Made by a program: the position numbers and the translations under genes
Notes under the pieces: generated by a model
What the model saw: only the letters and a program-made list of their open reading frames with translations
What the model was told of the DNA's origin: nothing
Database searches by the model: none
Source: a virus
UHGV virus genome: UHGV-0072520
Length of the DNA stretch: 12,477 nt
Direction: 5' to 3' (one strand)
Shown here: positions 50 to 12,477 of the stretch, piece after piece
Layout: each line of letters begins with the position of its first letter
How positions within the stretch are numbered: the stretch's first letter is position 1

Positions 50-412
50 ATGTTAAAGCTATTTGCAAAGTACACCTCGATTGGTGTGCTGAACACACTT
101 ATACACTGGGTGGTTTTTGGTGTATGTATTTATGCCGCGCATACAAATCAGGCTCTGGCAAACTTCGCAGGTTTCATAGTAGCTGTGAGCTTTAGCTTCT
201 TCGCGAATGCAAGATTCACATTCAAAGCATCGACTACAACGATGCGCTACATGTTATACGTGGGATTCATGGGAACCTTGAGTGTTGTCGTCGGGTGGGC
301 TGCTGATAGATGTGCACTTCCCCCAATGGTCACCCTTATCACTTTCTCCGCCATCAGCCTGGTGTGCGGTTTCGTATATTCAAAGTTCATTGTCTTTAGG
401 GATGCGAAATGA
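50..412 (+). CDS. gtrA: GtrA, bactoprenol-linked glucose translocase (flippase), small polytopic membrane protein
   Basis: 120-aa hydrophobic ORF; N- and C-terminal sequence ([24 protein letters not shown] ... [13 protein letters not shown]) recognised as GtrA of serotype-converting Shigella/E. coli phages. Its stop overlaps the next start (ATGA at 409-412), indicating translational coupling. Confidence 0.88.
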
Positions 413-1335
413 AGATATCTCTTGTAGTTCCTGTCTTCAATGAAGAAGAAGCGATACCAATTTTTTATAAAACGGTACGTGAATTCGAAGAGTTGAAGCC
501 ATATGAGGTGGAAATTGTTTTCATAAATGACGGCAGCAAAGACTCTACAGAGTCAATAATTAACGCTCTGGCTGTTTCTGATCCGCTAGTTGTTCCGCTG
601 TCATTTACCAGAAACTTTGGTAAAGAACCTGCGCTGTTCGCTGGTCTTGATCACGCAACTGGTGAGGCGATTATCCCGATTGACGTTGACTTACAGGATC
701 CAATAGAAGTTATTCCTCACCTGATTGAGAAATGGCAACAAGGTGCGGACATGGTTCTGGCTAAACGCTCTGACCGCTCTACTGATGGTCGATTGAAGCG
801 CAAAACAGCTGAGTGGTTCTATAAGCTACATAATAAAATAAGCAATCCGCAAATTGAGGAGAACGTCGGAGACTTCCGTCTGATGTCTCGTGAAGTAGTT
901 GAAAATATCAAGCTTTTACCCGAGCGTAATCTGTTCATGAAAGGTGTGCTTAGCTGGGTTGGCGGCCGTACTGATGTTGTCGAATATGCACGCGCTGAGC
1001 GTGTTGCTGGTAGCACTAAATTCAACGGATGGAAGTTGTGGAATTTGGCACTTGAAGGAATAACCAGCTTCTCTACATTCCCATTACGCATCTGGACTTA
1101 CATCGGCCTTCTCGTTGCTGGAGTTTCGTTCCTTTACGGAGCTTGGATGATTATTGACACACTTGCATTTGGTAATGCTGTCAGAGGCTATCCTTCCCTT
1201 CTCGTTTCCATATTATTCCTTGGTGGAATTCAGCTAATCGGCATTGGTGTTTTAGGGGAATATATTGGAAGAATTTATGTAGAAGCAAAACATCGCCCAA
1301 GATATTTAATTAAAAAGGAAAAACATGAAAAATAA
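409..1335 (+). CDS. gtrB: GtrB, bactoprenol glucosyltransferase (GT2 family)
   Basis: 308-aa ORF beginning [20 protein letters not shown] with FINDGSKD and DVDLQDP motifs typical of GT2 undecaprenyl-phosphate glucosyltransferases, plus C-terminal transmembrane segments; directly follows gtrA. Confidence 0.9.
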
Positions 1336-2629
1336 TAACACACATATAATGATAATCATATATGCTTTAGTTATATGCATGCTTACATCAAATGTTTTTA
1401 TGATTAATACTAGTGATTTTTACAGATCGGTATTTCCTTTCATAGGTGAAATAAATACATTTGATGGAAATCTAACACTAAATTATGAATTAAAAAAAGA
1501 TTTTTTGAGTGTTTTCTCCTATGATTACATTAGCTCTTATAGTTACATCTTATATATTTATGCTTATATTATTTCTTTCTTTACAAATTATTTAGATTTG
1601 AGATTGCTATCAAGTATTCTTAAGATTATTTTTATAATAACATTATACTCATTATTTAGAAATATCACCAAGGAAAATGGCGCTAAATTTTTGGCGATAT
1701 TTTTCATAATCGCTCTCCCTATGCTATCAACCTCAAACCTAGCATTCTTCTCATCTTTTTATCAAGAGCAAATAGTAATCATAGCATTACCAATAGTCTC
1801 TTTATTTATAAGCGGCAATAATAAAAAAGATATACTCATTACTTTCATAGCTGCCACCCTCATAGCTTGCTCAAAGAGCCAGTTCTTTTACCTTCCGTTA
1901 ATAATAGCAATAGCTTATGGCATATTTAATCGAGATATGTTTAAGTTTAAAATTTTATTAACAGTTTTATCAATGTCGCTTTCTTTAATGTGCATTTGGG
2001 GTTCCTCTGGTGCGGCAGCATTTAATAAATACCATGCAAATTATTTTGGTATATATGAATATGCAAAAATCAATAATATTGAGATCGAACAAAACGTAGA
2101 CCAAAAATGCATTGGCGTAGATGCGTGGGGAAATAAATTTAATCTAGAACATGGAGCTATACAAACAACTTTAGGTGGCGATTGTTTTGGTAGAAATACT
2201 TCTGCTGGTTTCGTCGATGTAATTAGATGGGTCGCTAAAAACCCCAGCATTATTTATAATCTTCCAGTTGATGCCGGGATTAAAACACAATATACTGAAA
2301 ATTATTTCCATGTATTTAATGGAATAAAATTAATACAGGGGAATACAGGGGCATTGTCATACTTAACTGAAGTCAAGGATTATTTATTTAAAGATCTTAG
2401 GTTTGTTATTTTATTCATTACAATGTTGTTATCAATCATCTTCATTAGAAAGAAACTCTCAATTTTACTCTTTACCGTATGCTCGTTTGGGACATCACAG
2501 TTATACGTCTCTTTTTTTGGCGAGGGTTACAGAGATTTAGACAAACATCTTTTCGGGATGAATTTCGCATTCGACTTAACTATATTTATCGTGATGTGTC
2601 TTTTAGTTAGATTAAAATTCAAAAAATAA
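1325..2629 (+). CDS. Type-specific O-antigen glucosyltransferase (GtrC-type), polytopic membrane protein; serotype specificity undetermined
   Basis: 434-aa highly hydrophobic ORF immediately after gtrAB, the canonical position of the type-specific gtr gene. Strikingly AT-rich compared with flanking DNA. Start overlaps the gtrB stop by 11 nt; an alternative in-frame ATG lies at 1349. Confidence 0.72.
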
Positions 2630-2660
2630 AATATTGCTGCGCCATGATTAACATGGCGCA
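2621..2660 (-). terminator. Intrinsic terminator between convergent gtrC and tailspike genes
   Basis: Perfect 9-bp inverted repeat tgcgccatg / catggcgca (2638-2646 and 2652-2660) with 5-nt loop attaa. The + strand A-run at 2621-2636 gives a U-tract for - strand transcripts just past the tailspike stop. May act weakly on + strand transcripts too. Confidence 0.5.
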
Positions 2661-2666
2661 AATTAC

Positions 2667-4628
2667 TCACCAGTCTGCTAAAACTATCGCCCCACGCATA
2701 AATGCACGGTAAAAAGGAGATTCCCCTGCAGGGAAGCTGAAATGGAGAACTGGTGCTTCCCCAACAGCGTAATAATCTTCCGGTTTGAATCCAAACATAA
2801 ACGTTTGGCTTGAAGAAAGAGTCACACTTGCAATATCTTGATAGCGAATACCGTCTTTGCTTTTACCCATAAGAAAAAGTCCGTTTATAGGATTCCCGCC
2901 ATTAAGATTGGATATCTCAAGCCAAGCCCCTACGCCCTTACTGTAGCTACTGCAAAGACATAGAGATGCATCAGAAGTTTTAAAAGCAACTCCACTGACA
3001 TCGACTCCTTGCTGGGTGGTTTCATGGTCCCCATCACCAGAGCCACTTAATATCCTAGTTGGCCATGCATTCTTCGTAATTGTCTGGTCACTTGAGCTTG
3101 GATCCGCAGGCATAACATCCTTAAGCAATTCCTGTAGTGGCCAATGTTTACCACTGCCGGCTCCACCAAATAGATAGGTCTTTGTTTTTAGCTGTCTTGG
3201 ATAAGACTTGGATGCTAGTTTAGTAACTAACTCTTGAAGTATTCGATTAGTGCGTATCCTGTCAGTAATACCTGGGTCAGCTTCACCATCCCATACAAAT
3301 GCACCAAAATTCCCATTGCCCGCAGCGCCAAATATTTCAGCGCCTCCAACTACCTGATCAATATCACCACTTATATTGCTTCCACTAAATAGAAACGCAC
3401 CAACTACAGGGATAACATTAGGAATTTCAGTCATTTTGGAAATTACACCAAAATCTAATCTCATTTTCACAAGATCGGCGTTAATTCTGGTTTGTAAATC
3501 TCCTGTTGCAGCAGTTGAATATGAGTTAACTAAAGCCAGATCATAATTTTTTGAATACCATTGATTGAACGGTCCGCCAGGAGGAAGTTGGCACACCATA
3601 AGCAATGTTTTGTTTGTAACACTACGAAGAGTTTCAATCTTTGCATCCTGATCTGCAACACTGATCCCTCTAGCGCCTGGCTCGTCATATACTGCATATG
3701 CTACAACCGCAGGATGAGTGTCTATGGATTTAACAAAACTTGGCAGATCAGATATAGCAAGCGGGTCTTGTTCGGTTCCGATAGAAACTTTTAGACCTGC
3801 TGTTAAAGCATTATCTAATAACTTAAACTTGTCGCCTTCATCATCTACAGAACCACTAAACCCCAAATAATGGTGGATACTATTAAATCCTAATTGCTTT
3901 ATAAATAACAACTCAGCCAAGTCATAAGCAGAGCTAACGTAACAAATTTTCACTTTTGCATCGAAAGATACATCTACTTCTGAAGTCGCTAATATTGATC
4001 CAAGATTGTAGCGAGTCGTGTTAATCTTAAAATTACCGATTAATTTCTGCCCCTTAGATTTCAGCTTTTTTGTGATTTTATACTCTTTGTCTTTGATTCC
4101 TACAACATCCTTCCCAGTATCAAATGCAGCCTGAATGGCGTCTGACCAATCATCATCAACAACAAGATTTGCATAATCTTCGATGTAAGCATATACATCA
4201 CTACGCTTATTAAGGTTGTCTATATCAGTCTGCTTTGCGGCCCCATTTACTAAATCCACACCACCAGGTGCAGCAAGCTCCTGTCTTAACTGATCAGGAT
4301 CGTACTTCAGCACATTAGGAAAATAGAATTGCTGTGCACCATACGCATCATAACCAGCCATAGAATGGCCTTGCACGGTAACGAATTTGGCAATCTGTCC
4401 GTTATATACAGGATAACCAGCAGCGTTAATGATGATTGGTTGAGAAACAGGAACGTGAGAGCCGTCTTCGTTCTCTATATAAACCTGAATCTGGTTTTCA
4501 GGATTTACCGGGTCCGTGTCAATTTTACCGATATAAATTTTGCCATTGGCTACGGCTTTAAAAGAACGCGCCATAGTGAAGAGTTGCGATGGCATTGATA
4601 CGATCACATTGGCTGTAATGTCTGTCAT
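2667..4628 (-). CDS. Tailspike protein: P22-type N-terminal head-binding domain, divergent C-terminal receptor-binding/depolymerase domain
   Basis: 653-aa ORF. The first ~115 aa ([13 protein letters not shown] ... [38 protein letters not shown] ... [13 protein letters not shown] ... NVLKYDPDQ) closely resemble the conserved head-binding domain of P22/Sf6/HK620 tailspikes as I recall them. The remainder is not recognisably the P22 endorhamnosidase. RBS GGAG lies 8 nt upstream of the ATG on the - strand. Confidence 0.85.
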
Positions 4629-4686
4629 TTAATTTGCTCCAGATACAAGGAATAGCCGCAGCATGGCTACGGTGAATTTTGGGCAT

Positions 4687-4709
4687 AAAAAAACCCAGCC
4701 GAAGCTGGG
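4687..4709 (-). terminator. Intrinsic terminator (- strand) upstream of the tailspike gene
   Basis: Stem cccagc / gctggg (4694-4699 and 4704-4709) with loop cgaa. Seven A's at 4687-4693 on the + strand give a U7 tract directly after the hairpin on the - strand. Confidence 0.5.
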
Positions 4710-4761
4710 TCGTTGCGTTGGTTATCTGTCAGTAGTTATGTACTGGCTGAAGGATTTGTAC

Positions 4762-4792
4762 AAAAAAACCACCTGACGGTGGGTTAATTTTT
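4762..4792. terminator. Putative bidirectional intrinsic terminator
   Basis: Stem ccacc / ggtgg (4769-4773 and 4778-4782) with loop tgac, flanked by an A7 run upstream (4762-4768) and ttaattttt downstream (4784-4792), so either strand gets a U-rich tail. Confidence 0.45.
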
Positions 4793-4810
4793 GCATTTAC
4801 CTGGGCCATA

Positions 4811-4839
4811 TTGACTACTTATAAAATGAGATCAATATT
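4811..4839 (+). promoter_or_regulatory. Candidate sigma70 promoter for the small + strand gene
   Basis: TTGACT (4811-4816), 17-nt spacer, AATATT (4834-4839); the -35 matches consensus at 5 of 6 positions and the -10 at 4 of 6. Lies about 35 nt upstream of the ATG at 4876. By-eye match only. Confidence 0.3.
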
Positions 4840-4875
4840 TAATCGCCCAATAATGGGTGTATGTTGAGGTATATC

Positions 4876-5055
4876 ATGGCGAAAAAACCAGGTGAAAACA
4901 CAGGAAAAAACGGCGGAATATACCAAGAAGTTGGCCCACGCGGCGGTAAGAAAGACAATTTTGCCACCGTCAAGGACAACGAAAGGCTTCCACCAACAAC
5001 AAAGCCAGGTCATGGCTGGGTATTGGATAAGCGAACTCCAGACAGCAAAAAGTAA
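4876..5055 (+). CDS. Small YjzC-like protein (function unknown)
   Basis: 59-aa ORF MAKKPGENTGKNGGIYQEVGPRGG ... LPPTTKPGHGWVLDKRTP. The G-x-Y-x-E-V-G ... W ... KRTP pattern resembles the YjzC-like small-protein family as I recall it. GAGG RBS 5 nt upstream of the ATG at 4876 (the ORF track's upstream ATG at 4861 lacks an RBS). A terminator follows. Confidence 0.5.
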   Translation: MAKKPGENTGKNGGIYQEVGPRGGKKDNFATVKDNERLPPTTKPGHGWVLDKRTPDSKK

Positions 5056-5061
5056 TAATCA

Positions 5062-5084
5062 AGCCGGGTCACTCCGGCTTTTTG
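5062..5084 (+). terminator. Intrinsic terminator after the YjzC-like gene
   Basis: Stem agccgg / ccggct (5062-5067 and 5074-5079) with loop gtcact, followed by a T5 run. It overlaps the 3' end of the convergent - strand gene, so it may serve both. Confidence 0.55.
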
Positions 5085-5434
5085 ATATGTCGCTCGCAGA
5101 ACTCAACAAGCCTGCTCATTAAGTAGCAGTAAGTCTCGTTGGCTCTTCCTGGTTCAACATCAACACCTACCCTTGAGCAGATATCGAATGCCATGTGAGC
5201 GCACTCATGGGCAATAGTAGATAGTTTGCCATTGAACACGCCTATCACATGCAAAACACCATTCTCGCTACTCATTGTATGAGACGCTCCGTTGGCGTCC
5301 GAGTCATGCACGTCAACGCCAAGTTTTTGATGCAGGCGTTGCCATTCTGGAAAGTCTCTACAAAACACAATTGTACCGCTCTCAAAGAGCGGAACGAGCA
5401 TCTTTGGTACGTTTCCAATGTTAACTTTTTTCAT
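5069..5434 (-). CDS. Hypothetical protein with HExxH zinc-metallopeptidase-like motif
   Basis: 121-aa ORF containing IAHECAHMAFD (H-E-x-x-H) followed by several Cys/His residues (DICS, YCY, FCERH) that could complete a metal site. AGGA RBS 4 nt upstream of the ATG on the - strand. No family assignment possible without a search. Confidence 0.55.
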   Translation of the reverse strand: MKKVNIGNVPKMLVPLFESGTIVFCRDFPEWQRLHQKLGVDVHDSDANGASHTMSSENGVLHVIGVFNGKLSTIAHECAHMAFDICSRVGVDVEPGRANETYCYLMSRLVEFCERHIKKPE

Positions 5435-5468
5435 GGTATCCTGCGCAAAACTAAGGAGAGTTAATTAT

Positions 5469-5954
5469 ATGAAAAAACCACTGTTAATTATCCCGCTTCT
5501 GCTGGCTGGGTGCGCAAAAGTAAGCGACTATCAGGCAAGTTGCGAGCAACGCTATCCAAAGCTTAGCGATATGGCTAATTGCCTTGATGCCAGCTTGAAG
5601 AACGACTCTCGCATGGCATCAGCACCAACACCTAAGCTGTATGTCCTTGCTGCGAAGATGCTCGGGCAAGGTGTCGATGAAGGCAAGATAAGTGACACAC
5701 AGGCAAGACTTGAACTTCAGAATCTTTATGTTCAATTACAAAGCCAAGAACAAGCACAACAAATAGCACAAAGCCAAGCATTCCAGCAGGCTTTATTGAA
5801 TTATCAGGCTGTAAACACAATGCAAGCGATCGAGCAAAAAGCGCGCCAGCCTGTTATAACTCAACCTTACCCAACACGCGTTGACACATATACAAACTGC
5901 AATTCAGGATTTGGAAACACGGTAACATGCAACAGTAGCAGTAATATCAGGTAG
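5469..5954 (+). CDS. Prophage-encoded lipoprotein, predicted outer-membrane localisation
   Basis: N-terminus MKKPLLIIPLLLAGC has a classic signal peptide plus LAGC lipobox, and Ala at +2 argues against inner-membrane retention. GGAG RBS about 10 nt upstream of the ATG at 5469 (the ORF-track start at 5418 adds an unlikely extension with no RBS). Gln-rich predicted helical middle; 161 aa. Confidence 0.7.
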   Translation: MKKPLLIIPLLLAGCAKVSDYQASCEQRYPKLSDMANCLDASLKNDSRMASAPTPKLYVLAAKMLGQGVDEGKISDTQARLELQNLYVQLQSQEQAQQIAQSQAFQQALLNYQAVNTMQAIEQKARQPVITQPYPTRVDTYTNCNSGFGNTVTCNSSSNIR

Positions 5955-5968
5955 TTACATCTTATCTT

Positions 5969-7816
5969 TTATTGCTGTTCTGCTGTAATTTGGCTTGAAA
6001 GTATAGGGCGTATCGCATTTGCAGCATTATTTAGCGCTCTTTCATAGGCTGGTGTTCCTGCTTTGGTGTTTGCCAAACGTAAGAGAGCATTCCTTGCTGC
6101 TTTTGACTCATACAAGCGCATCATTGCACCGAAACCAGCCTCAAGCCCCATTGATACGCCAAGAGTCGCAGTTGCGCCAATCGTCCTTATCCTGTTGGCT
6201 TGCGATTGCCCCGTCTGAGTTACTACATTTGCGGTGTCTGACCTTGCTGTTTGCTGTAGAACTTCATGAAGAGAATCAAGCTCTTTCATGTGCTTTCCAG
6301 AAAAAATAGTGTTGTAAATTTCACCGCCTGACTGAGATTTCAGCTTATTAACTTCAGTGATGAACTTGGCTGGAGAGTCCCCGGCCTTTTCCGCTATTTT
6401 GCTGACGTAAGCTGCACGCATAGCATCTTTCCCCTTATCATCCAGTGCGCTCCAGATTCGTTTCACGTCAGATGGTTTTCTGCTTAATACAACGGTATTT
6501 ATAAGTTCAGGACTGGCTTCACTGCTTGCCTTGTTGAGCTTGTTGGCAATGTTTTTATTAAGCACCTTATTATAAACGTTTGCATAATCGGAATTTGCTT
6601 TAAGGTATTTTGCTGCGTCTGATGCACCGAGGTTTTTAGCAACTGCGTTACGAAGGTCTTTTGACATTGCATTCTCTACCATATTGGTAGCTGCTTTTGC
6701 CTGGTTGGGGAAGACCATAGCATCTCCCTGAACATTAGATCTAAATGCTGTTCTGTGCTGACGCAAGAGATCAAACGTAACATCCAAATCAGTTGCAGGG
6801 TTTGCTAATTCTTCACGTAGGTTACGCAAGGATGTAAGCAGGCTTTGATTGGCAGACGTCCCAAGCCGTTCCTGTCTTGCGATCGCTGTATTCAGAGCAT
6901 TCATGGTATTTGTTGTATCAACTGCGGCATTACCCATTTTATTGGTGACGTCATTGATAACAGCGCCAGCGGCATCCTTCCGTCCCCTTAACGTGGTGGT
7001 CAGAGATTTCACCACATCATCAGGGTTGTACTCACCAAAACGGTCAAAATAATTACTTACCAGTTTACTACGCGTTGCATATTGCTCCGCTCGCTTTGAT
7101 CCTGTCCCGAGCAAAGCCCCCTCGGCATCCTGAGTAAGGCCGCGAGTGAAAGCATTTTTCGGTGGGATGACATCAGATGTCATTGGCGTCACACCCATTG
7201 ATTCTGAGGTGGCAATTTTTTTCGCTACTTCTGGCGCGATATCGCCTTTTATAGCCGTTATTCCACGCCCTATTCCCTTTGCTGCTGCGGAAAGAACACC
7301 CTGAGCGGCAAGGTTAACTCCGGCATTTTTAGCTGCATTTTGTGCGAAATCGCCTTTCTGATTTGCGGCCTCTGCCAGTGAGCCAATAGCCATGCTTCCT
7401 GCCGTTCCAACTCCTGGAACTAAATACCCGCCAATTGTTTCTCCAGCTTGCGCATAAGGGTCTGTCGGTCGATCGACAGGGCGATAAACATCATCCAAAA
7501 CCTTGGGGCCACCAAGCCCCTGGCTGATTGCATTAATCAGACTTGCGCCACCCTGCAATACGTCAAATGGTATGTTTACCAGACCACGACCAGCCTGTTC
7601 TGCAATTTGCCCTGCACTTTGACCACCAGTGAGCCAATCGCCAGCTTGTTGCATCAATGATGGTTCTTCCCGTGTTGGTGCATTATTGGCCTGATTAACT
7701 GTTTGTTGCTGAACAGCCTGACCAGCAAAATACTCATCAATGGCGGTGCCAATATCTTCGGTGCTCGTACCATCAGGAAAGGTAAATGTCTTACCGTTTG
7801 CAGTTACTTTCATCAT
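5969..7816 (-). CDS. Ejection (DNA-transfer/injection) protein, P22 gp16-like
   Basis: 615-aa Ala/Gly/Gln-rich ORF without obvious enzymatic motifs, upstream of and co-oriented with the tailspike, matching the position and approximate size of P22 gene 16. Start overlaps the upstream stop (ATGA at 7813-7816). Assignment is by synteny and composition, not verified homology. Confidence 0.6.
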
Positions 7817-8805
7817 TCCACCGTAAATTGAATGCCTGATTTTGAGGTATATGATCCGGATTGACTCTGCTGCTGTTGGGTATTTGTCGGTTGTTGGTTA
7901 TTGCTCTGTTGTTGACTATTTGCAGCACTTGAAACCACCAAAGCATCATAAACGCGACCAGACTGACCACGTAATGAGTTATATTGGCCCTGCATTTTTC
8001 GCATTTTTGTTTCAGTAGCAGCCTTGGAATCACCAGGCTGAGGCAGGTACATTTTGGAATACTCCTGCATCTCTGGCAGAGTAATTGCTGCACCTGTTTC
8101 TGGGCGCAAAATTGCATACAAGGCGTCTCTCGCATTTACCATATATTGCTGCTCCGCTGGTGATAGGCTTAAATTTGCAATAGTCCCATCACCAAGAGAG
8201 CGATTTATTAATGCAACTCGCTTAGGGTCAATGCTTTTACTAAGCTGATTCATTGAGTCCATTGAATCTTTTAATCGCAAAGCAAATCCTGCCGCCTTCT
8301 TGGAACCCTCATTAGCCTTATCTATGATGCTTTGCGCTTGTGGCAAACTAATTGGTTTAATGCCATCACCAGATATAGGTTGGTTTAGTTTTCCGGCTTC
8401 CTCGCTGCCATCGGTGTAATACTTAGTTACCGAGCCATCAGGATTGGTTTCAACCTTAAGTAATTTCTTAGCATTGGGATTAATTCCCGCCGCTGCCGCA
8501 AATGCCGCTGCACCATCTGGATCCGCCTTTAACATTTGCGCGTACTGATTGTAATTCTGCATTGCGACTGTTGGTGCATATGCTGACGTTAACGCATTTG
8601 CTCGGCTAATATCCTGCCCTCTCGCCTGAAGTGCCTCGCCAGCCTGATTGCTGCGGATTGTCTCTGCCAGTCTGCCTCGGTCAATCTCACGACCAGCCAT
8701 CTTGTCCTGAACAGCAAACGCCTTTTCTGGTCCAAGCGCACCGAGAGACATAGTAGTCAGCATGTGTGATAGCTGCTCTGGATTCTGGATACCTGTCTGA
8801 ATCAT
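7813..8805 (-). CDS. Ejection protein, P22 gp20-like, apparently missing its 5' end
   Basis: 330-aa ORF from the first ATG, but the frame stays open upstream to 8919 with no start codon, which suggests the N-terminal coding part was deleted. Translationally coupled to the gp16-like gene. Assignment is by synteny. Confidence 0.5.
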
Positions 8806-8835
8806 CCAGTCAGCATTAGCACCAACGCGATTTAA

Positions 8836-9192
8836 CCTGTCCTTGTTGTCAGTAATGAATTTACTGTAGGCTTCCGGTCCCTGAGAAAGAGCGACGTTAC
8901 CGTAATAGTCCCCTGTCGGTTAGGGAAGCTGCGTGTTGAGCTGGAAGCAACAGAGAACAACCTCATTGATAGTGAATGCCATGTTGCTGAACTGGAAGAA
9001 GCACTACGCGACAAGCAGGCGTTACTTGAAGCCTCAGAAAAGCGCATAGCAGAACAAAGCTCGATTGTTACAGCCGCTGAAAAACTGGTTCGCTGTAAAG
9101 GCCGCTATCACAGTGAGCAAAACTATCGTGCGCTGGCTGCATTGTTTGGCGTAACAGTGCCGGATTTACCACCACTGCAAGCAGATGATTAA
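8836..9192 (+). pseudogene. 3' fragment of an early-region gene (coiled-coil C-terminus), no start codon
   Basis: Open frame 8836-9189 with no ATG/GTG/TTG start. It encodes ...KLRVELEATENNLIDSECHVAELEEALRDKQALLEASEKRIAEQ...LFGVTVPDLPPLQADD and ends 10 nt before the next gene with operon-like spacing (AAGGA RBS at 9191-9195). Confidence 0.35.
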
Positions 9193-9202
9193 GGACTAAC
9201 CT

Positions 9203-9775
9203 ATGACCACTATTACCAAAGAGCGACTACTGACAATCAAGCAGTGGCGCGAAACATACGGACCTGGTAGCAACGTTGTACTGCCAGCAGAAGAAGCGGA
9301 AGAACTGGCACGAATTGCTCTGGCATCGCTGGAAGCAGAACCTGTAAGCCAAACTTACAACTTGCCACAAACGCACTTTGAACAGGTTGCTGACCTTTAC
9401 GAAATGCAATTTGATGACGGACGCACTTGTGCCTTTCATACTGATGCACAAAAGGCTGCGCAATGGCTTCGGGCATGCGACGGAAACAGGGTTCAGGAAT
9501 ACGTGAAACTGGAGCGACTGCAGAACGCGCTATCGGGCAACTCTCCGGTAATTCCGGATAGTTGGATAAGCTGTAGTGAGCGAATGCCGGAAAAGAATCA
9601 GAACGTGCTTATTTCGGTGAATTTCGATAGCTCTCTGGTTGAACCGCTAATATGCTCCGCACGCTATACCGGAAGCACCTTTCGGCGCGGAGATGCAACG
9701 ATTAAGCCGGGTAATGGTATTGAGCAAGCAACTCACTGGATTCCGCTACCGGAACCGCCGCAGGAGGCGAAATGA
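9203..9775 (+). CDS. DUF551-like phage early protein
   Basis: 190-aa ORF whose C-terminus (WISCSERMPEKNQNVLI ... ATHWIPLPEPP) matches the DUF551 signature common in lambdoid/P22-like early regions, as I recall it. AAGGA RBS 7 nt upstream. Confidence 0.68.
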   Translation: MTTITKERLLTIKQWRETYGPGSNVVLPAEEAEELARIALASLEAEPVSQTYNLPQTHFEQVADLYEMQFDDGRTCAFHTDAQKAAQWLRACDGNRVQEYVKLERLQNALSGNSPVIPDSWISCSERMPEKNQNVLISVNFDSSLVEPLICSARYTGSTFRRGDATIKPGNGIEQATHWIPLPEPPQEAK

Positions 9776-10032
9776 TGGATGTAAAAGAGAAGGTTTTGCA
9801 GGTGATGCGTTCCCGGGCTGCCCTGCAAGATAAAGCTCTCGGCGGGGAATATCCATTCAGAATGGCAACCTGGAATTTGCGGTTGGCAATGGAGAAGGAA
9901 TTTCCTGATGAAGAATGGCGTTCGGCAGATTTGCGCAAAATTCTTATGGAGATTGCTAAAGACGGAACAGTATCTAAAGATAACCATGCCAGCCGGATTG
10001 GTCAGGCGGTATGGAGACTGGAGGTGCGGTAA
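9772..10032 (+). CDS. Hypothetical small phage protein
   Basis: 86-aa ORF; start overlaps the upstream stop (ATGA at 9772-9775), indicating translational coupling within the early operon. Confidence 0.55.
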   Translation: MMDVKEKVLQVMRSRAALQDKALGGEYPFRMATWNLRLAMEKEFPDEEWRSADLRKILMEIAKDGTVSKDNHASRIGQAVWRLEVR

Positions 10033-10313
10033 TGGCTAACCTGCAACTTGCCGTCAAAGGTGAATACTTCGATGCCATGATTCGCGGAGATAAAACGGAA
10101 GAGTATCGCCTGTGTAATGACTACTGGAATAAGCGAATTATGTTCCGGGAATATGACCGCCTGATTATCACAAAGGGATATCCGAAGCGCGACGACTCCA
10201 GTCGCAGAATTGATGTTCCGTATGGAGGATATGAAGTGAAAACAATCACACACCCCCACTTCGGTGATAAGCCGGTAAAGGTATACGCGATAAAGGTGAA
10301 TATCAATTGCTAA
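10032..10313 (+). CDS. ASCH/PUA-like domain protein
   Basis: N-terminus MANLQLAVKGEYFDAMIRGDKTEEYRL resembles the ASCH-domain signature (compare E. coli YqfB ...FQDDILAGRKTITIRD). Start chosen at the ATG overlapping the upstream stop (TAATG) with GGAGGTG 7 nt upstream. The ORF-track start at 10011 lies inside the previous gene. Confidence 0.58.
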   Translation: MANLQLAVKGEYFDAMIRGDKTEEYRLCNDYWNKRIMFREYDRLIITKGYPKRDDSSRRIDVPYGGYEVKTITHPHFGDKPVKVYAIKVNINC

Positions 10314-10424
10314 ATTAGTGGCATAGCATAAAGATGCTTGCATTAATGAAGTGTGTATAATAACGCCTCATCAATTGTAAACTACTGAAATAGCAAAAAA
10401 TGCATATTAAAGAGGATTCGAAAA

Positions 10425-10616
10425 TTGAAAATGTTCATGCAAATAGACAGACGCATAGATCTTAATGGCAATTCATACTTAGTTAGATGCGAAGAGAGGC
10501 CTAACGGTGAGTGGCGTGTATATGATATTGACCGTAAGATCAATATCAGCACCATGAACAAAGACACTGCCTTTGATGAATGGAAAGCTGAAGCTAAAAA
10601 ACAACATAATTCGTAG
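10425..10616 (+). CDS. Hypothetical small protein
   Basis: 63-aa ORF. AGAGGA at 10411-10416 is well spaced for the TTG at 10425; ATGs at 10431 and 10437 are alternatives. Followed by a terminator. Confidence 0.42.
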   Translation: MKMFMQIDRRIDLNGNSYLVRCEERPNGEWRVYDIDRKINISTMNKDTAFDEWKAEAKKQHNS

Positions 10617-10658
10617 AATTACAAAAACCCTAACCAATTGATGGATTTCTTTTATCTG

Positions 10659-10683
10659 AACTCGCTACGGCGAGTTTTGTTTT
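10659..10683 (+). terminator. Intrinsic terminator
   Basis: 7-bp stem aactcgc / gcgagtt with loop tacg, followed by ttgtttt. Confidence 0.55.
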
Positions 10684-10695
10684 ATGGAGATGATT

Positions 10696-10995
10696 ATGGC
10701 CTGTTCAACATTCAACCCTCTAACGTTACAGAAATACCAGCCAGCCCCTGAAGATTTATGCTCACTGTGTGGCGGAAATCATGGTAAAGCCGCCATGATT
10801 GAATGTAAGGACAAAATCCACATTTGCCTTAATTGCGTTGATGTCCTCGTTGATATCAAAAATGAGAGAGAAGATAAAAAGCGTAGCGAGGCTGTTCGAG
10901 CCTTAGATTCATGGATGCGAGATGGGTATAGTGCCGCGCAAATTTATGACTTAGCAATATCAAAAGGCGAAATACCAGGAGTGCGCATCGAATAA
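10696..10995 (+). CDS. Cys-rich small protein, possible zinc-ribbon
   Basis: ORF with paired CxxC motifs (CSLCGG ... CLNC) separated by about 18 residues. Start chosen at the ATG at 10696 with GGAG 6 nt upstream; the ORF track begins at 10684. Confidence 0.5.
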   Translation: MACSTFNPLTLQKYQPAPEDLCSLCGGNHGKAAMIECKDKIHICLNCVDVLVDIKNEREDKKRSEAVRALDSWMRDGYSAAQIYDLAISKGEIPGVRIE

Positions 10996-11035
10996 GACGT
11001 AACCAATATTTGTATTGAAGAACTGAAAGAACACC

Positions 11036-11061
11036 AAGCCGCCTGATGGCGGTTTATTTTT
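11036..11061 (+). terminator. Intrinsic terminator
   Basis: Stem ccgcc / ggcgg (11039-11043 and 11048-11052) with loop tgat, extendable by A-T pairs, followed by tttattttt. Confidence 0.55.
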
Positions 11062-11076
11062 GCCTGGAGAATTAAG

Positions 11077-11268
11077 ATGACCGATACCAGCCTGATTCCT
11101 GAGAAAGAAGTGATGAACAAGCTCGGTGTTTCATCACGTCAGACAATCTGGAACTATACCAAACGGCACGGATTTCCGAAGCCAGTCAGAACCCACCCCA
11201 AATCATACCTTCGTGAAGCTGTTGAGGGGTGGATTCTTAACGGTGGCGTTAATCAGAAATGCTCCTGA
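11077..11268 (+). CDS. AlpA-family phage transcriptional regulator / putative excisionase (HTH)
   Basis: 63-aa ORF MTDTSLIPEKEVMNKLGVSSRQTIWNYTKRHGFPKPV..., typical of AlpA/Xis-like small HTH proteins next to P4-type integrases. GGAG RBS at 11065-11068. Confidence 0.75.
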   Translation: MTDTSLIPEKEVMNKLGVSSRQTIWNYTKRHGFPKPVRTHPKSYLREAVEGWILNGGVNQKCS

Positions 11269-12427
11269 TGTGCCAGAACAATTTATCAGCGTGAAGCTCA
11301 TACGCTTTGCGCTGAGCCTCTATCCAGTCGTGTTTATTGTATACGGACATTATCCCGCCAAGTTCATGACCGAGCATTCGCTCAGTAACATGAGGCTCGA
11401 CATTCATCTCGGACAGACGTGTAACAAGCGTTCTTCTGAAATCATGTGTTCGCCAGTAACCTATATCCATCCCTCCCCTTATTCTATTTACGAATCGGTT
11501 GGCTGCAGCGATGCTGATCGGTTTGTTTATGTCTTCTCCAGGGAAAAGAACATCATTGTACGTTGTCATGGCCTTTTCGAGGAAAGGCTTAATTTGTTCG
11601 AAGATTGGACGGCGGATAACATTACCCATCTTGCTATGCTCTTTCGGTACGGTCCATACGTTTTCCAGCAGGTCAAATTCTGTCTTTTTTGCCAGCCTAA
11701 GCTCTGAGAGCCTCGCCCCCCACATCATAAGCATCTGATGAAGTAGCTTATTTGACGTAGACGCACGGCTTCTTTCAATAGCAAGCCAAATCTTAGCCAG
11801 TTCGTGATACGACAGTACCCGATCCCCTACCTCAGCGCGGGAGCCGAAGTCCCTTGGTTGGATGCTCATAATTGCGCAACTATCTATCAACTGACGCCGC
11901 ATGCACCAACTTATTGCTGACCTTAGTTGACTTAGCACCTGCCTTGCTCGGCGTGGATTATCTCTTTCTTCTTCGGTAAGCAGGTCAACCCATTGCTTAA
12001 CCGTGATAGAAGATGCCGGACGATTAGGAAAGGCGTCATGCATGCGCTTCATAACCGTTGATCGGTAAAGTGCCTGGGTCTTTTCTCTGAGAGTTGTAGA
12101 GACGTAGTTGTCGAACCAGTAGTCGAGACACTGGGCGACCGTCATGGAGTTCTCCACCTTCTCTTCAAAATAAGTGCGTGGATCCGTTCCTGAGAAATAG
12201 AGCTTTCGCAAGTCAGCAGTGATCTGTCTGGCATCCTTCAAAGACAGGGATGGGTATCGACCAAGCCCAAGTCGATTAGGCTTGCCATGCCAGCGATAGC
12301 GGTACTGGAACTGGATGACCCCCTTCGGTGAAATTCGTACGCTGAGGCCATCGGCATCAGCCACTTCTTGTGGGCCCGAATATGGTTTACCATAAATAGT
12401 ACGCAGTTTTGTGTCGCTTATAGCCAT
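11249..12427 (-). CDS. int: Tyrosine site-specific integrase, P4-type (DUF4102-like N-terminal arm-binding domain)
   Basis: 392 aa. N-terminus (SDTKLR ... DGLSVRISPKG ... YRYRWHGK ... LGLGRYPSLSLKDAR) fits the P4-family integrase pattern. C-terminal catalytic residues are visible: HDFRRT (H-x-x-R) and the tyrosine in MSVYNKHDW. Confidence 0.92.
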   Translation of the reverse strand: MAISDTKLRTIYGKPYSGPQEVADADGLSVRISPKGVIQFQYRYRWHGKPNRLGLGRYPSLSLKDARQITADLRKLYFSGTDPRTYFEEKVENSMTVAQCLDYWFDNYVSTTLREKTQALYRSTVMKRMHDAFPNRPASSITVKQWVDLLTEEERDNPRRARQVLSQLRSAISWCMRRQLIDSCAIMSIQPRDFGSRAEVGDRVLSYHELAKIWLAIERSRASTSNKLLHQMLMMWGARLSELRLAKKTEFDLLENVWTVPKEHSKMGNVIRRPIFEQIKPFLEKAMTTYNDVLFPGEDINKPISIAAANRFVNRIRGGMDIGYWRTHDFRRTLVTRLSEMNVEPHVTERMLGHELGGIMSVYNKHDWIEAQRKAYELHADKLFWHIRSISD

Positions 12428-12435
12428 AAATAATA

Positions 12436-12477
12436 TTTGGTACGCTCAGAAATAATGGTTTGGTACACATCTGGTAC
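12436..12477. repeat. Three direct copies of TGGTAC just outside the integrase 5' end (possible arm-type sites)
   Basis: TTTGGTAC at 12436-12443 and 12459-12466, and TGGTAC at 12472-12477, all in direct orientation at the window edge. Confidence 0.25.

Follow-up and report, generated by a model that had tools for sequence, protein, structure and literature searches.

A lipoprotein gene in the sieA slot of a P22-like prophage remnant as a candidate superinfection-exclusion factor

In a 12,477-nucleotide stretch of viral DNA (UHGV virus genome UHGV-0072520, here called the window), a gene for a putative lipoprotein of 161 residues stands where phage P22 carries its superinfection-exclusion gene sieA. 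As judged from the sequence, its place in the sieA slot, behind the promoter and the ribosome-binding site of sieA, makes it a good candidate for an exclusion factor acting at the level of the cell envelope. The explanation that we prefer, at a probability of about 0.4, is a prophage-expressed periplasmic lipoprotein, anchored in the outer membrane, that would block the DNA delivery of incoming phages: an analogue of SieA, Llp and Cor, and a homologue of none of them. It would be an accessory, or 'moron', lipoprotein occupying the superinfection-exclusion slot of P22-like phages.

The locus had been singled out in an earlier note, made from the DNA letters, which described the gene as part of a prophage. 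The prophage is here a deleted remnant, and none of the complete E. coli genomes contains the window entirely, the best match covering 50%. The neighbours named in that note, namely the ejection gene 16, the tailspike gene, a divergent HExxH open reading frame (ORF) and gtrABC, were all found as described (Table 1). A literature search for this lipoprotein found no paper.

Table 1. Features of the window that bear on the lipoprotein gene, in order of position.
Feature	Position	Strand	Basis or remark
gtrA, gtrB and gtrC-like genes (O-antigen modification)	50..2629	+	Pfam GtrA_DPMS_TM, Glycos_transf_2; RefSeq names of matching E. coli DNA
Tailspike gene with P22-type head-binding domain	2667..4628	-	Pfam PF09008, E 1.1e-65
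P22-like block	4746..5458		98.2% identical to P22 DNA between mnt and sieA; blastn, explicit alignment
P22 orf59a homologue, 59 aa, 98% identical	4876..5055	+	tblastn; PHROG 3202
Hairpin plus T-run, counterpart of the P22 mnt terminator	5061..5083	+	Terminator scan; P22 annotation mapped
121-aa HExxH ORF, PHROG 1365 (unknown function)	5069..5434	-	Divergent, 34-nt gap to lipoprotein gene
PsieA counterpart	5404..5434	+	Sequence identical; P22 annotation mapped by base-by-base alignment
Shine-Dalgarno AAGGAG	5453..5458	+	Common to P22 sieA and the Gally copy
Lipoprotein gene, PHROG 6067 member	5469..5954	+	161 aa plus stop; ORF list, sequence
Signal peptide with lipobox LAGC	5469..5513	+	Cys15 is the predicted lipidated first mature residue, followed by Ala at +2
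Gene-16-type ejection (DNA transfer) protein, P22 type	5969..7816	-	PHROG 770; 74.6% identical to P22 gp16

The gene and its predicted product

The reading frame that the earlier note had proposed belongs to a real gene. Its translation matches PHROG 6067 over the full length (residues 1-161 against profile positions 1-161 of 161, E 1.6e-108), RefSeq annotates the same 161-residue ORF as a 'hypothetical protein' of the WP_016231948 type, and its homologues form 88 clusters. With a dN/dS of about 0.05 over 55 distinct alleles, the gene is under strong purifying selection. The ATG follows the Shine-Dalgarno AAGGAG at a distance of 10 nt. A longer reading of 178 residues, starting at position 5418, was considered and rejected: in phage Gally the upstream extension is wholly different and conservation starts only at MKK, so that the longer start is unsupported. 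The degraded state of the prophage might suggest a chance ORF or a decaying pseudogene without function, but the frame is intact, full-length homologues occur across genera and a near-identical copy is transcribed. Together with the low dN/dS, the conservation data have already effectively refuted this reading.

Every sequence criterion applied points strongly to a lipoprotein. The N-terminus, MKKPLLIIPLLLAGC followed by AKVSD, satisfies a PROSITE PS51257-type lipobox rule, scored by a script: a K or R is found within the first seven residues, followed by six non-charged residues, LLAG and a cysteine at position 15. The same N-terminus, MKKPLLIIPLLLAGC, also agrees with a general description of lipoproteins, that is, a lipobox [LVI][ASTVI][GAS]C, a positive n-region and a cysteine at residues 15-35. 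The LAGC lipobox with alanine at +2 had been pointed out before and is borne out by the pattern rule and by conservation: across 29 homologues, which come from about ten enterobacterial genera, Cys15 and Ala16 never vary, and neither do Cys25 and Cys38. Among these 29, a C-terminal CxxxG(N)xxxxC pair is present in both C-terminal variants. Across the superfamily the lipobox occurs in 124 of 132 members, and none of the 132 has the Asp at +2 that would serve as a Lol-avoidance signal. Exactly four further cysteines are found in 97 of them, as expected for folding in the oxidising periplasm. An outer-membrane location of the lipoprotein is suggested by the +2 rule.

The descriptions of the protein as Gln-rich and as carrying paired cysteines near both ends proved accurate. 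Gln accounts for 20 of the 161 residues (12.4%), 15 of which fall within residues 84-128, and the cysteines at positions 15, 25, 38, 144 and 154 yield the pairs 25/38 and 144/154. In the AF2 model, which has a mean pLDDT of 78 and of about 90 over residues 20-110, helices span residues 18-28, 32-44, 53-70 and 76-125, and a hairpin spans 139-159.

These features allow the first step of a mechanism to be sketched, for which the sequence argues strongly. The precursor would be exported, lipidated at Cys15 and cut by signal peptidase II, and since the residue at +2 is Ala and not Asp, Lol should carry it to the outer membrane and leave it in the inner leaflet. After cleavage, the protein of 146 residues would be periplasmic. 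About three residues past the lipid anchor it would form a compact helical bundle with a predicted Cys25-Cys38 staple, continuing into a long Gln-rich helix, then a Pro-rich linker and, at the C-terminus, a β-hairpin with a predicted Cys144-Cys154 staple.

At E <= 0.01, PHROG 6067 is the only PHROG match. It is annotated as 'unknown function', so that membership gives the lipoprotein a name and no explanation. Pfam has no match to the lipoprotein at E <= 0.1, PADLOC and NCBIfam scans gave nothing above their cut-offs, and the same holds for all three libraries when scanned with ten distant relatives. Weak matches to TraV, RcsF and 'mostly_LP' were discarded, as they cover the signal peptide only. 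A sequence-profile search of the PDB returned chance matches (E 0.26 or worse), and none of the structural neighbours of the predicted fold was informative. Homology to Cor, Llp, Bor or TraT was not found among Pfam and annotated PHROG families, nor did the searches made detect a similarity to known exclusion proteins by sequence or by fold.

The sieA slot and its exchangeable content

The assignment of the gene to the locus that P22 uses for sieA, also made in the earlier note, can now be put precisely: it lies behind P22's own PsieA and Shine-Dalgarno, with 98% identity up to 10 nt before its ATG. The P22-like block spans orf59a (whose true start is the ATG at 4876, not 4861), the mnt terminator, the PsieA promoter and the Shine-Dalgarno. 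Where it ends, the left boundary of a cassette swap is seen, and from this stop so close to the ATG it follows that the lipoprotein ORF replaces the sieA ORF as a cassette.

In P22, one chromosomal copy of sieA confers exclusion with no more than the 85 bp upstream, which include a promoter that the literature terms 'putative' (PMC10883804). A consensus promoter scan upstream of the lipoprotein gene flagged nothing and a relaxed scan gave weak candidates only, an outcome that is superseded by the sequence identity to the annotated PsieA of P22. The counterpart of the mnt terminator should insulate the gene from upstream transcription. Two features of a moron are present, a promoter of its own (by identity to P22 PsieA) and an upstream terminator (that of mnt). 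As a second step of the mechanism, transcription from P22's sieA promoter and translation from the sieA Shine-Dalgarno are strongly indicated; with these signals the lysogen would produce the lipoprotein whether or not the late operon is active.

The position is likewise that of the SieA family: between gene 16 and gene 9, behind PsieA and convergent with gene 16, from which a gap of 14 nt separates the lipoprotein gene. In phages and prophages of the six genera surveyed (Escherichia, Salmonella, Proteus, Morganella, Yersinia and Tatumella) the lipoprotein gene always lies between gene 16 and the tailspike gene, convergent with the former. The content of the slot varies. Neither tblastn nor its motif FxRYPxEAxxFNK, which was searched with up to two substitutions and turned up only in the P22 control, revealed SieA in about 100 lipoprotein loci. 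Among phage genome records, 41 carry SieA and five the lipoprotein, with no overlap; in all loci examined, the two genes are mutually exclusive. Only 22 of 66 sequenced P22-like phages have sieA, about two thirds being without it (PMC10883804). Copies of the lipoprotein that are 96-99% identical adjoin gp16 types with only 32-35% identity to each other. In Tatumella the same slot also holds a Rap1a-type T6SS immunity gene, and in Gally it holds an additional, unrelated lipoprotein.

The divergent HExxH ORF, whose first codons are overlapped by the PsieA counterpart, is intact in P22 (120 of 121 residues identical), where it is unannotated and adjoins sieA, and it is absent beside most lipoprotein homologues. 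It belongs to the P22-derived block and not to the lipoprotein cassette. The idea of a functional pair of this ORF and the lipoprotein was rejected, because most homologue loci are without the ORF and P22 pairs it with sieA. A layered exclusion arsenal of lipoprotein and gtrABC, which had also been suggested, is plausible as a speculation, as gtrABC is present in the window.

Distribution and expression

Of 5426 complete E. coli genomes, 186 carry the lipoprotein gene, among them pathotypes such as O26:H11 and ST131; it is also found in Escherichia, Salmonella and Proteus phages. Its family comprises about 234 clusters at 50% identity. The distant relatives are mostly lipoproteins, and several reside on other mobile elements: integrase/primase islands, phage-like contigs and a site beside a 4839-residue MuF-type polyvalent protein. 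Two are found in chromosomal-looking contexts. A word-indexed search with a profile of the distant relatives retrieved seven proteins only, and a scan of species-representative genomes four loci only. When viral contigs were scanned by pattern for such relatives, none appeared.

Expression can be followed in GALLYPH_13, a copy with 97% identity in prophage Gally of E. coli LF82 (PMC9928086). In LB its transcript value is 70 against a prophage median of 15.6, and its log2(fpkm+5) is about 6 in LB, about 8 in DMEM and 10.3 in macrophages, with a reported log2 fold change of 2.55 (q 4.7e-27); the adjoining ejection genes stand at about 3-4, which is background (PMC9928086). At 4.5-fold over the prophage median the gene fell below the 5-fold moron cut-off of the authors of that study, which is why they did not name it a moron (PMC9928086). 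The induction in macrophages extends over the entire right end of Gally, mnt and tailspike included, so that it is not specific to GALLYPH_13 (PMC9928086). The upstream region of the Gally copy is unlike that of the window, and its expression values are thus those of another arrangement.

Comparison with known systems

Three types of SieA, A, B and C, have been defined by Leavitt et al. 2024 (PMC10883804). The lipoprotein gene has the same slot and orientation as P22 sieA: each directly follows gene 16 and converges with it. In this window the promoter region and the Shine-Dalgarno that precede the two genes are also the same, and the products are similar in size (161 residues versus 162/164). 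Both are taken to be prophage-expressed and envelope-located, which for the lipoprotein is a prediction. However, SieA is a protein of three to four transmembrane helices that lacks a signal peptide. The mature part of the lipoprotein has no hydrophobic or transmembrane segment, its Kyte-Doolittle maximum over 19-residue windows being 0.47 as compared with more than 1.9 in the SieA segments. As BLASTP yields an E of 1.6 between the two and the SieA motif is absent from the lipoprotein loci, the lipoprotein is not a member of the SieA family.

A model for its possible action is offered by Llp of T5 and Cor of phi80, N15 and T1, small phage lipoproteins whose signal peptides are short and whose cysteines matter for function. 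They act at the periplasmic side of the outer membrane and stop the entry of the same and of related phages. Their target is the siphovirus receptor FhuA, which P22-like phages are not known to use, and they are roughly half the size of the lipoprotein. The earlier remark that the latter is larger than Cor, Llp and Bor agrees with the sizes generally known for these. Sequence or profile similarity to Llp and Cor is lacking, and the predicted helical bundle plus hairpin, a fold without structural neighbour, sets the lipoprotein apart from them. Lambda Bor, plasmid Iss and TraT are outer-membrane lipoproteins as well, encoded by accessory genes that are expressed in the carrier cell. Bor and TraT confer serum resistance or surface exclusion and have Pfam families of their own; the lipoprotein does not match these families and differs in size and predicted fold.

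The closest conceptual precedent is a lipoprotein aimed at ejection proteins. Ltp of the Streptococcus thermophilus phage TP-J34 is a helical prophage lipoprotein that blocks DNA injection by binding the ejected tape measure protein of the incoming virion (PMC10883804, PMC3952083). It differs in its Gram-positive host, its anchor in the cytoplasmic membrane and its repeat-domain architecture, and no similarity to it was detected in the PDB searches.

What the lipoprotein may do

In the exclusion reading, a third step would take place at the periplasmic face of the outer membrane, where the lipoprotein would interfere with the DNA delivery of incoming phages. Two routes seem the most likely. 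On one, the gp7/gp20/gp16 conduit by which P22-like phages span the envelope would be obstructed in its passage or its assembly. On the other, an outer-membrane protein used in ejection would be locked, as FhuA is by T5 Llp. The lipoprotein would then do the work of SieA, which sits in the inner membrane, without being its homologue. Several observations speak against this reading. A place in a variable slot is circumstantial, and a conserved host target would fit equally well with the very low dN/dS, which has no arms-race signature. Two copies of the gene are present in three of its 186 E. coli genomes, two relatives are the chromosomal-looking ones mentioned above, and unrelated genes are found in the same slot.

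A broader version of the proposal, possible if doubtful, sees in the lipoprotein a new and widespread family of exclusion lipoproteins that would block the ejection conduit of podoviruses, a second solution unrelated to SieA, carried as a promoter-less cassette exchangeable with sieA and owing its specificity to the C-terminal hairpin. Its roughly 234 clusters have P22-like prophages, satellite-like islands and other phages as carriers. The block would come from the outer-membrane or periplasmic side, whereas SieA works at the inner membrane, and the swappable disulfide hairpin would be the specificity element.

The rise of the Gally transcripts from LB through DMEM to macrophages would also suit a different role: a lysogenic-conversion factor, Bor-like in concept, that serves host fitness without a direct effect on phages, by changing the properties of the envelope or the tolerance of stress, so that lysogens might, for instance, survive better in macrophages, serum or bile. 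A conserved host target is consistent with the strong purifying selection, the gene has been kept intact in a heavily deleted prophage remnant, and its carriers among complete E. coli genomes include pathotypes. We consider this unlikely nevertheless, since the macrophage induction covers the whole right end of Gally, Pfam reveals no similarity to Bor or to any virulence family, and the precise swap with sieA and the occurrence on phage-satellite-like islands point more to a conflict between genetic elements. The Tatumella locus, where the gene directly follows the Rap1a-family T6SS immunity gene in the mnt operon, hints at yet another role, that of a periplasmic immunity or inhibitor protein against an envelope-acting toxin or hydrolase, be it a T6SS peptidoglycan effector, a colicin, a lysozyme-like enzyme or the ejection-protein murein hydrolase of some phages. 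Some of the adjoining gp16 homologues carry an SLT lytic transglycosylase domain. The predicted product, small, helical, disulfide-bonded and periplasmic, fits immunity proteins in a general way, as this description is true of many of them. Kinship with Rap1a itself was rejected at a profile-profile probability of 0.3% (hhalign), and Pfam PF18602 is not matched. With the sole NCBIfam match to a T6SS-immunity lipoprotein being weak, well below cut-off and confined to the signal-peptide region, and a cognate toxin gene adjacent in none of the loci examined, such a role seems quite improbable. Blocking a gp16 murein hydrolase would itself be exclusion, so that this idea overlaps with the preferred explanation.

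The vicinity of virion genes brings to mind a task in the lytic cycle, such as spanin-like lysis or stopping progeny from ejecting on debris. There are precedents among outer-membrane lipoproteins, to which the o-spanins belong, and T5 Llp also guards progeny from debris. The gene, however, lies on the strand opposite to the late operon with the prophage-type PsieA promoter in front, and its Gally copy is transcribed in lysogens while late genes are silent. Many P22-like phages, P22 included, do without it, and we regard a lytic-cycle role as very improbable. The spanin idea in particular was rejected on expression, on strand and on the missing C-terminal transmembrane domain; Gally, moreover, has its own annotated Rz lysis gene elsewhere (PMC9928086).

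Implications

The content of the slot in P22-like phages without sieA has hitherto been undescribed, and in some of them it is the lipoprotein gene. Should a benefit to the host be its true role, the lipoprotein would add a new factor of lysogenic conversion to those of pathogenic E. coli, AIEC LF82 being an example. Should the exclusion reading hold, for which a single-copy galK assay system has already been published in the case of SieA (Leavitt et al. 2024, PMC10883804), it would provide a tractable probe, on the outer-membrane side, of the gp7/gp20/gp16 conduit that crosses the envelope. Exclusion would also give a function to the whole family with its roughly 234 clusters, ten scanned members of which have no Pfam match. 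Finally, it would explain why many clinical E. coli lysogens resist P22-like phages and possibly others, a resistance that bears on phage therapy and typing.

Exchange of the sieA ORF for a lipoprotein ORF

In P22 (BK000583), the superinfection exclusion gene sieA is separated by 23 bp from gene 16, its convergent neighbour, and has its own annotated promoter, PsieA; the mnt terminator, orf59a and mnt come next. Across positions 4746-5458 the window is 98.2% identical to this stretch, PsieA and the Shine-Dalgarno sequence included, which bears out the placement of the lipoprotein gene in the earlier note, at the locus used by P22 for sieA. The neighbours named there (ejection gene, tailspike, divergent HExxH ORF and gtrABC) also lie where they were described. 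P22 homology stops at 5458, with 10 nt left to the lipoprotein ATG and, in P22, 7 nt to the annotated start of sieA; past this point the two coding regions bear no relation to each other (BLASTP E 1.6). This combination of P22-identical expression signals and an unrelated coding sequence indicates that the lipoprotein ORF has replaced the sieA ORF, a precise substitution behind PsieA. One chromosomal copy of sieA, together with the 85 bp upstream that include the putative promoter, is sufficient for full exclusion (Leavitt et al., PMC10883804). The window shares nearly all of these 85 bp, and we infer that its lipoprotein gene is expressed from PsieA.

Features of the window around the lipoprotein gene
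Feature	Position	Strand	Remarks
gtrA, gtrB, gtrC-like gene	50-2629		
P22-type tailspike	2667-4628	-	
mnt, last 30 nt	starts at 4746		in the 98.2% P22 block
orf59a	4876-5055	+	homologue of P22 orf59a, 98% identical, 59 aa
mnt terminator	5061-5083		in the 98.2% P22 block
HExxH ORF	5069-5434	-	121 aa, PHROG 1365 (unknown function), divergent from lipoprotein gene
PsieA counterpart	5404-5434		identical to annotated P22 PsieA
Shine-Dalgarno AAGGAG	5453-5458	+	
Lipoprotein gene	5469-5954	+	ORF, 161 codons
Gene-16-type ejection protein	5969-7816	-	convergent with lipoprotein gene
Gene 20, 5'-truncated	within 7813-9000	-	
DUF551 protein	9203-9775		right of P22-like element (9000-12477)
Several small ORFs	within 9000-12477		
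AlpA-like ORF	11077-11268		assigned from sequence alone, no family match
Tyrosine integrase	11249-12427	-	

The small ORF 4861-5055 (+) matches PHROG 3202 and, weakly and below threshold, a YjzC-like Pfam family; as an orf59a homologue it starts at ATG 4876 rather than 4861. The HExxH ORF, whose first codons are overlapped by PsieA on the opposite strand, is intact in P22 (120/121 aa identical) yet unannotated in BK000583; in E. coli prophages RefSeq names it a hypothetical protein. It belongs to the block shared with P22.

Judged by its gene content, the P22-like element is a remnant, as gene 20 lacks its first ~93 codons (P22 gp20 residues 94-239 map to 9000-8575, minus strand) and gene 7 and everything beyond are absent from the window. 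The immI genes are affected as well: within 4660-4776, the stretch that usually separates ant from the tailspike gene runs straight into the end of mnt (junction 4745/4746), and the prophage has thereby lost mnt, arc and ant (and sar). Still intact are gtrABC, the tailspike gene, gene 16, orf59a, the HExxH ORF and the lipoprotein gene. No complete E. coli genome contains the entire window, the best match covering 50%.

A conserved lipoprotein precursor

The N-terminus of the product, MKKPLLIIPLLLAGC followed by AKVSD, has a positive start, a hydrophobic core and the lipobox LAGC with Cys15 and Ala at +2; in a scripted check it passed a lipobox rule of the PROSITE PS51257 type. No hydrophobic segment is present in the 146-residue mature part. 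The protein is 12.4% Gln, with a concentration in residues 84-128, and besides Cys15 there are cysteines at 25, 38, 144 and 154. The lipoprotein signal, the Gln-rich 161-residue product and the paired cysteines near both ends (Cys25/38 and Cys144/154), all read earlier from the sequence, are thus confirmed. A 178-aa reading from 5418 was rejected because the upstream sequence differs in phage Gally, a prophage of E. coli LF82, and conservation begins at MKK. These features identify a predicted lipoprotein precursor devoid of an inner-membrane retention signal, with conserved cysteines consistent with periplasmic disulfides; by the +2 rule it would reside in the outer membrane.

PHROG 6067 ('unknown function') matches the protein over its full length (E 1.6e-108), whereas Pfam, NCBIfam and PADLOC gave no match. 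Among 5.8 billion proteins searched there were 88 homologous clusters from many enterobacterial genera, including Escherichia, Citrobacter, Serratia, Cronobacter, Pectobacterium, Yersinia, Morganella, Providencia and Tatumella, as well as Klebsiella aerogenes. Five sequenced phages carry the gene, all Lederbergvirus (Gally, vB_EcoP-720R6, VSe13, MS2 LVA and Proteus phage Brookers, whose record names it 'putative lipoprotein'), and so do 186 of 5426 complete E. coli genomes, always on the chromosome and as a 'hypothetical protein' in all records listed. Cys15, Ala16, Cys25 and Cys38 are invariant in 29 aligned homologues (50-96% identity), all of which have the C-terminal CxxxG(N)xxxxC pair. 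With dN/dS of ~0.05 across 55 distinct 161-codon alleles (median dS 0.19), the gene is under strong purifying selection and, on this evidence, is real and conserved.

In the same alignment the last ~33 residues come in two alternative versions that both keep the Cys pair. This Pro-rich linker and disulfide hairpin (window 5850-5951, residues ~128-161; …VITQPYPTRVDTYTNCNSGFGNTVTCNSSSNIR or …TYIPPVQLQNNNVTTNCTTYGNQTRCQSY) has, in different genera, been joined by recombination to N-terminal parts that are almost the same, the junction following ...ARQP, and is therefore a possible specificity module.

A mobile cassette in a shared slot

In every locus examined, from E. coli, Salmonella and Proteus phages to Yersinia, Morganella and Tatumella prophages, the gene lies between the tailspike gene and the gene-16 homologue and converges with the latter. 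What lies upstream differs between loci: the P22-type orf59a/HExxH/PsieA block in 20 of ~100 loci and in 18 complete E. coli genomes, a divergent second lipoprotein in Gally, mnt directly in Brookers, and mnt and then a Rap1a-type immunity gene in Tatumella. Elsewhere it is the divergent tailspike gene, with an element resembling a promoter that Brookers has conserved too. Lipoprotein copies 96-99% identical adjoin gp16 proteins just 32-35% identical to that of the window, so the gene moves as an independent cassette. SieA turned up in none of the ~100 loci (tblastn and motif search), and among phage records 41 carry type A SieA and five the lipoprotein, with no overlap; the two genes are mutually exclusive in all loci examined.

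The Gally neighbour, GALLYPH_14 (5411-5830 of that locus, minus strand), is an unrelated 139-aa lipoprotein with an LSGC lipobox and a weak PEGA-domain match. The Tatumella terrea gene (6604-6942, plus strand) belongs to the Rap1a family of T6SS immunity proteins and shares the orientation of the lipoprotein gene, which indicates that the mnt-to-gene-16 slot also gathers other periplasmic protective cargo. The gene-16 homologue of this locus (7468-10125, minus strand; 885 aa) fuses an SLT lytic transglycosylase domain to the P22_gp16 domain.

Expression in lysogens

The Gally copy, GALLYPH_13 (LF82_138), is 97% identical, and its expression can be followed in re-analysed RNA-seq data (Misson et al., Tables S1 and S4, PMC9928086). 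In stationary-phase LB its normalised expression reaches 70, whereas the prophage median is 15.6, and among Gally genes the C2 repressor alone stands higher. This 4.5-fold ratio falls just under the 5-fold moron cut-off of the authors, which explains why Gally was reported without morons. Its log2(fpkm+5) is ~8 in DMEM and, in macrophages, 10.3 at 1 h and 8.6 at 6 h (log2 fold change at 6 h versus LB 2.55, q 4.7e-27), with the adjacent ejection-protein genes at ~3-4 throughout. These data show that, in lysogens, transcription of the near-identical copy does not depend on the late operon; its upstream region differs from that of the window. GALLYPH_14, also without a moron call, is transcribed even higher in DMEM and macrophages.

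A wider superfamily and its predicted fold

When 1.84 billion cluster representatives were searched exhaustively with a profile, 234 proteins scored E <= 0.001, most of them lipoproteins 125-140 aa long. The N-terminal domain is common to them, and a C-terminal TxCxxxGxxxxC hairpin often follows after a shorter linker. A lipobox is present in 124 of the 132 members aligned; a few apparently have an ordinary non-lipoprotein signal peptide instead, and none has Asp at +2. The mature part has exactly four cysteines in 97 members. Such a pattern reads as the signature of a domain working in the oxidising periplasm.

An AlphaFold2 model built on this alignment (mean pLDDT 78, ~90 over residues 20-110) predicts that helices 18-28, 32-44 and 53-70 form a small bundle with the first part of helix 76-125; a long Gln-rich helix, the Pro-rich linker and a beta-hairpin (139-159) follow. 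As the bundle starts ~3 residues past the lipidated Cys, it should sit directly under the membrane.

Ten distant members gave nothing above threshold in Pfam or NCBIfam. Five of the seven with readable genomic context sit on mobile elements, namely two integrase-plus-primase islands, a phage-like contig with a small terminase subunit, an integrase-plus-DnaB element and a locus (L101) where the gene is directly convergent with that of a MuF-type polyvalent protein; the other two look chromosomal. Recurrent carriage by mobile elements is thus indicated. In L101 the relative (212-589, plus strand) faces a 4839-aa protein (590-9589, minus strand) with ParB, Eco57I, helicase and MuF_C domains, of a kind packaged in virions, a placement that loosely mirrors the gene-16 adjacency in P22-like phages.

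Possible functions

Is this protein a counterpart of known exclusion factors? P22 SieA sits in the inner membrane, has three predicted transmembrane helices and carries the motif FxRYPxEAxxFNK on its cytoplasmic side (PMC10883804); the lipoprotein has neither such helices nor the motif, and topology, motif and sequence all speak against membership in the SieA family. Profiles likewise rejected Cor, Llp, Bor, TraT and Rap1a. T5 Llp, Cor and Gram-positive Ltp are the nearest models in concept, none of them homologous.

We tentatively infer envelope-level superinfection exclusion as the likeliest function, with a probability of roughly 40%. Working on the periplasmic side of the outer membrane, the lipoprotein might prevent the assembly or passage of the gp7/gp20/gp16 conduit when a P22-like phage infects; alternatively, it might lock an outer-membrane protein on which ejection depends. 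Against exclusion count the missing likeness to any known exclusion protein, the other kinds of cargo in the slot, the very low dN/dS and the presence of two copies in three of the 186 E. coli carriers. The absence of an arms-race signature, together with the dependence of Gally-copy expression on medium and macrophages, would suit an envelope factor serving host fitness, a possible reading that we hold less likely than exclusion. A periplasmic immunity or hydrolase-inhibitor protein, which overlaps in part with exclusion, is suggested by the Rap1a neighbour and by gp16 homologues bearing SLT, and seems rather unlikely. A role in the lytic cycle is improbable, and an ORF without function hardly conceivable.

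Literature searches found no paper mentioning the lipoprotein, whose sequence is already catalogued as a PHROG 6067 member and RefSeq hypothetical protein. New here are the identification of its family as substituting for sieA as an ORF cassette, and a much larger, uncharacterised superfamily often found on mobile elements. In kind the protein is unsurprising, joining the prophage accessory lipoproteins that are candidate exclusion factors; what it offers is a well-defined and inexpensive way to learn what takes the place of sieA in P22-like phages that lack the gene.
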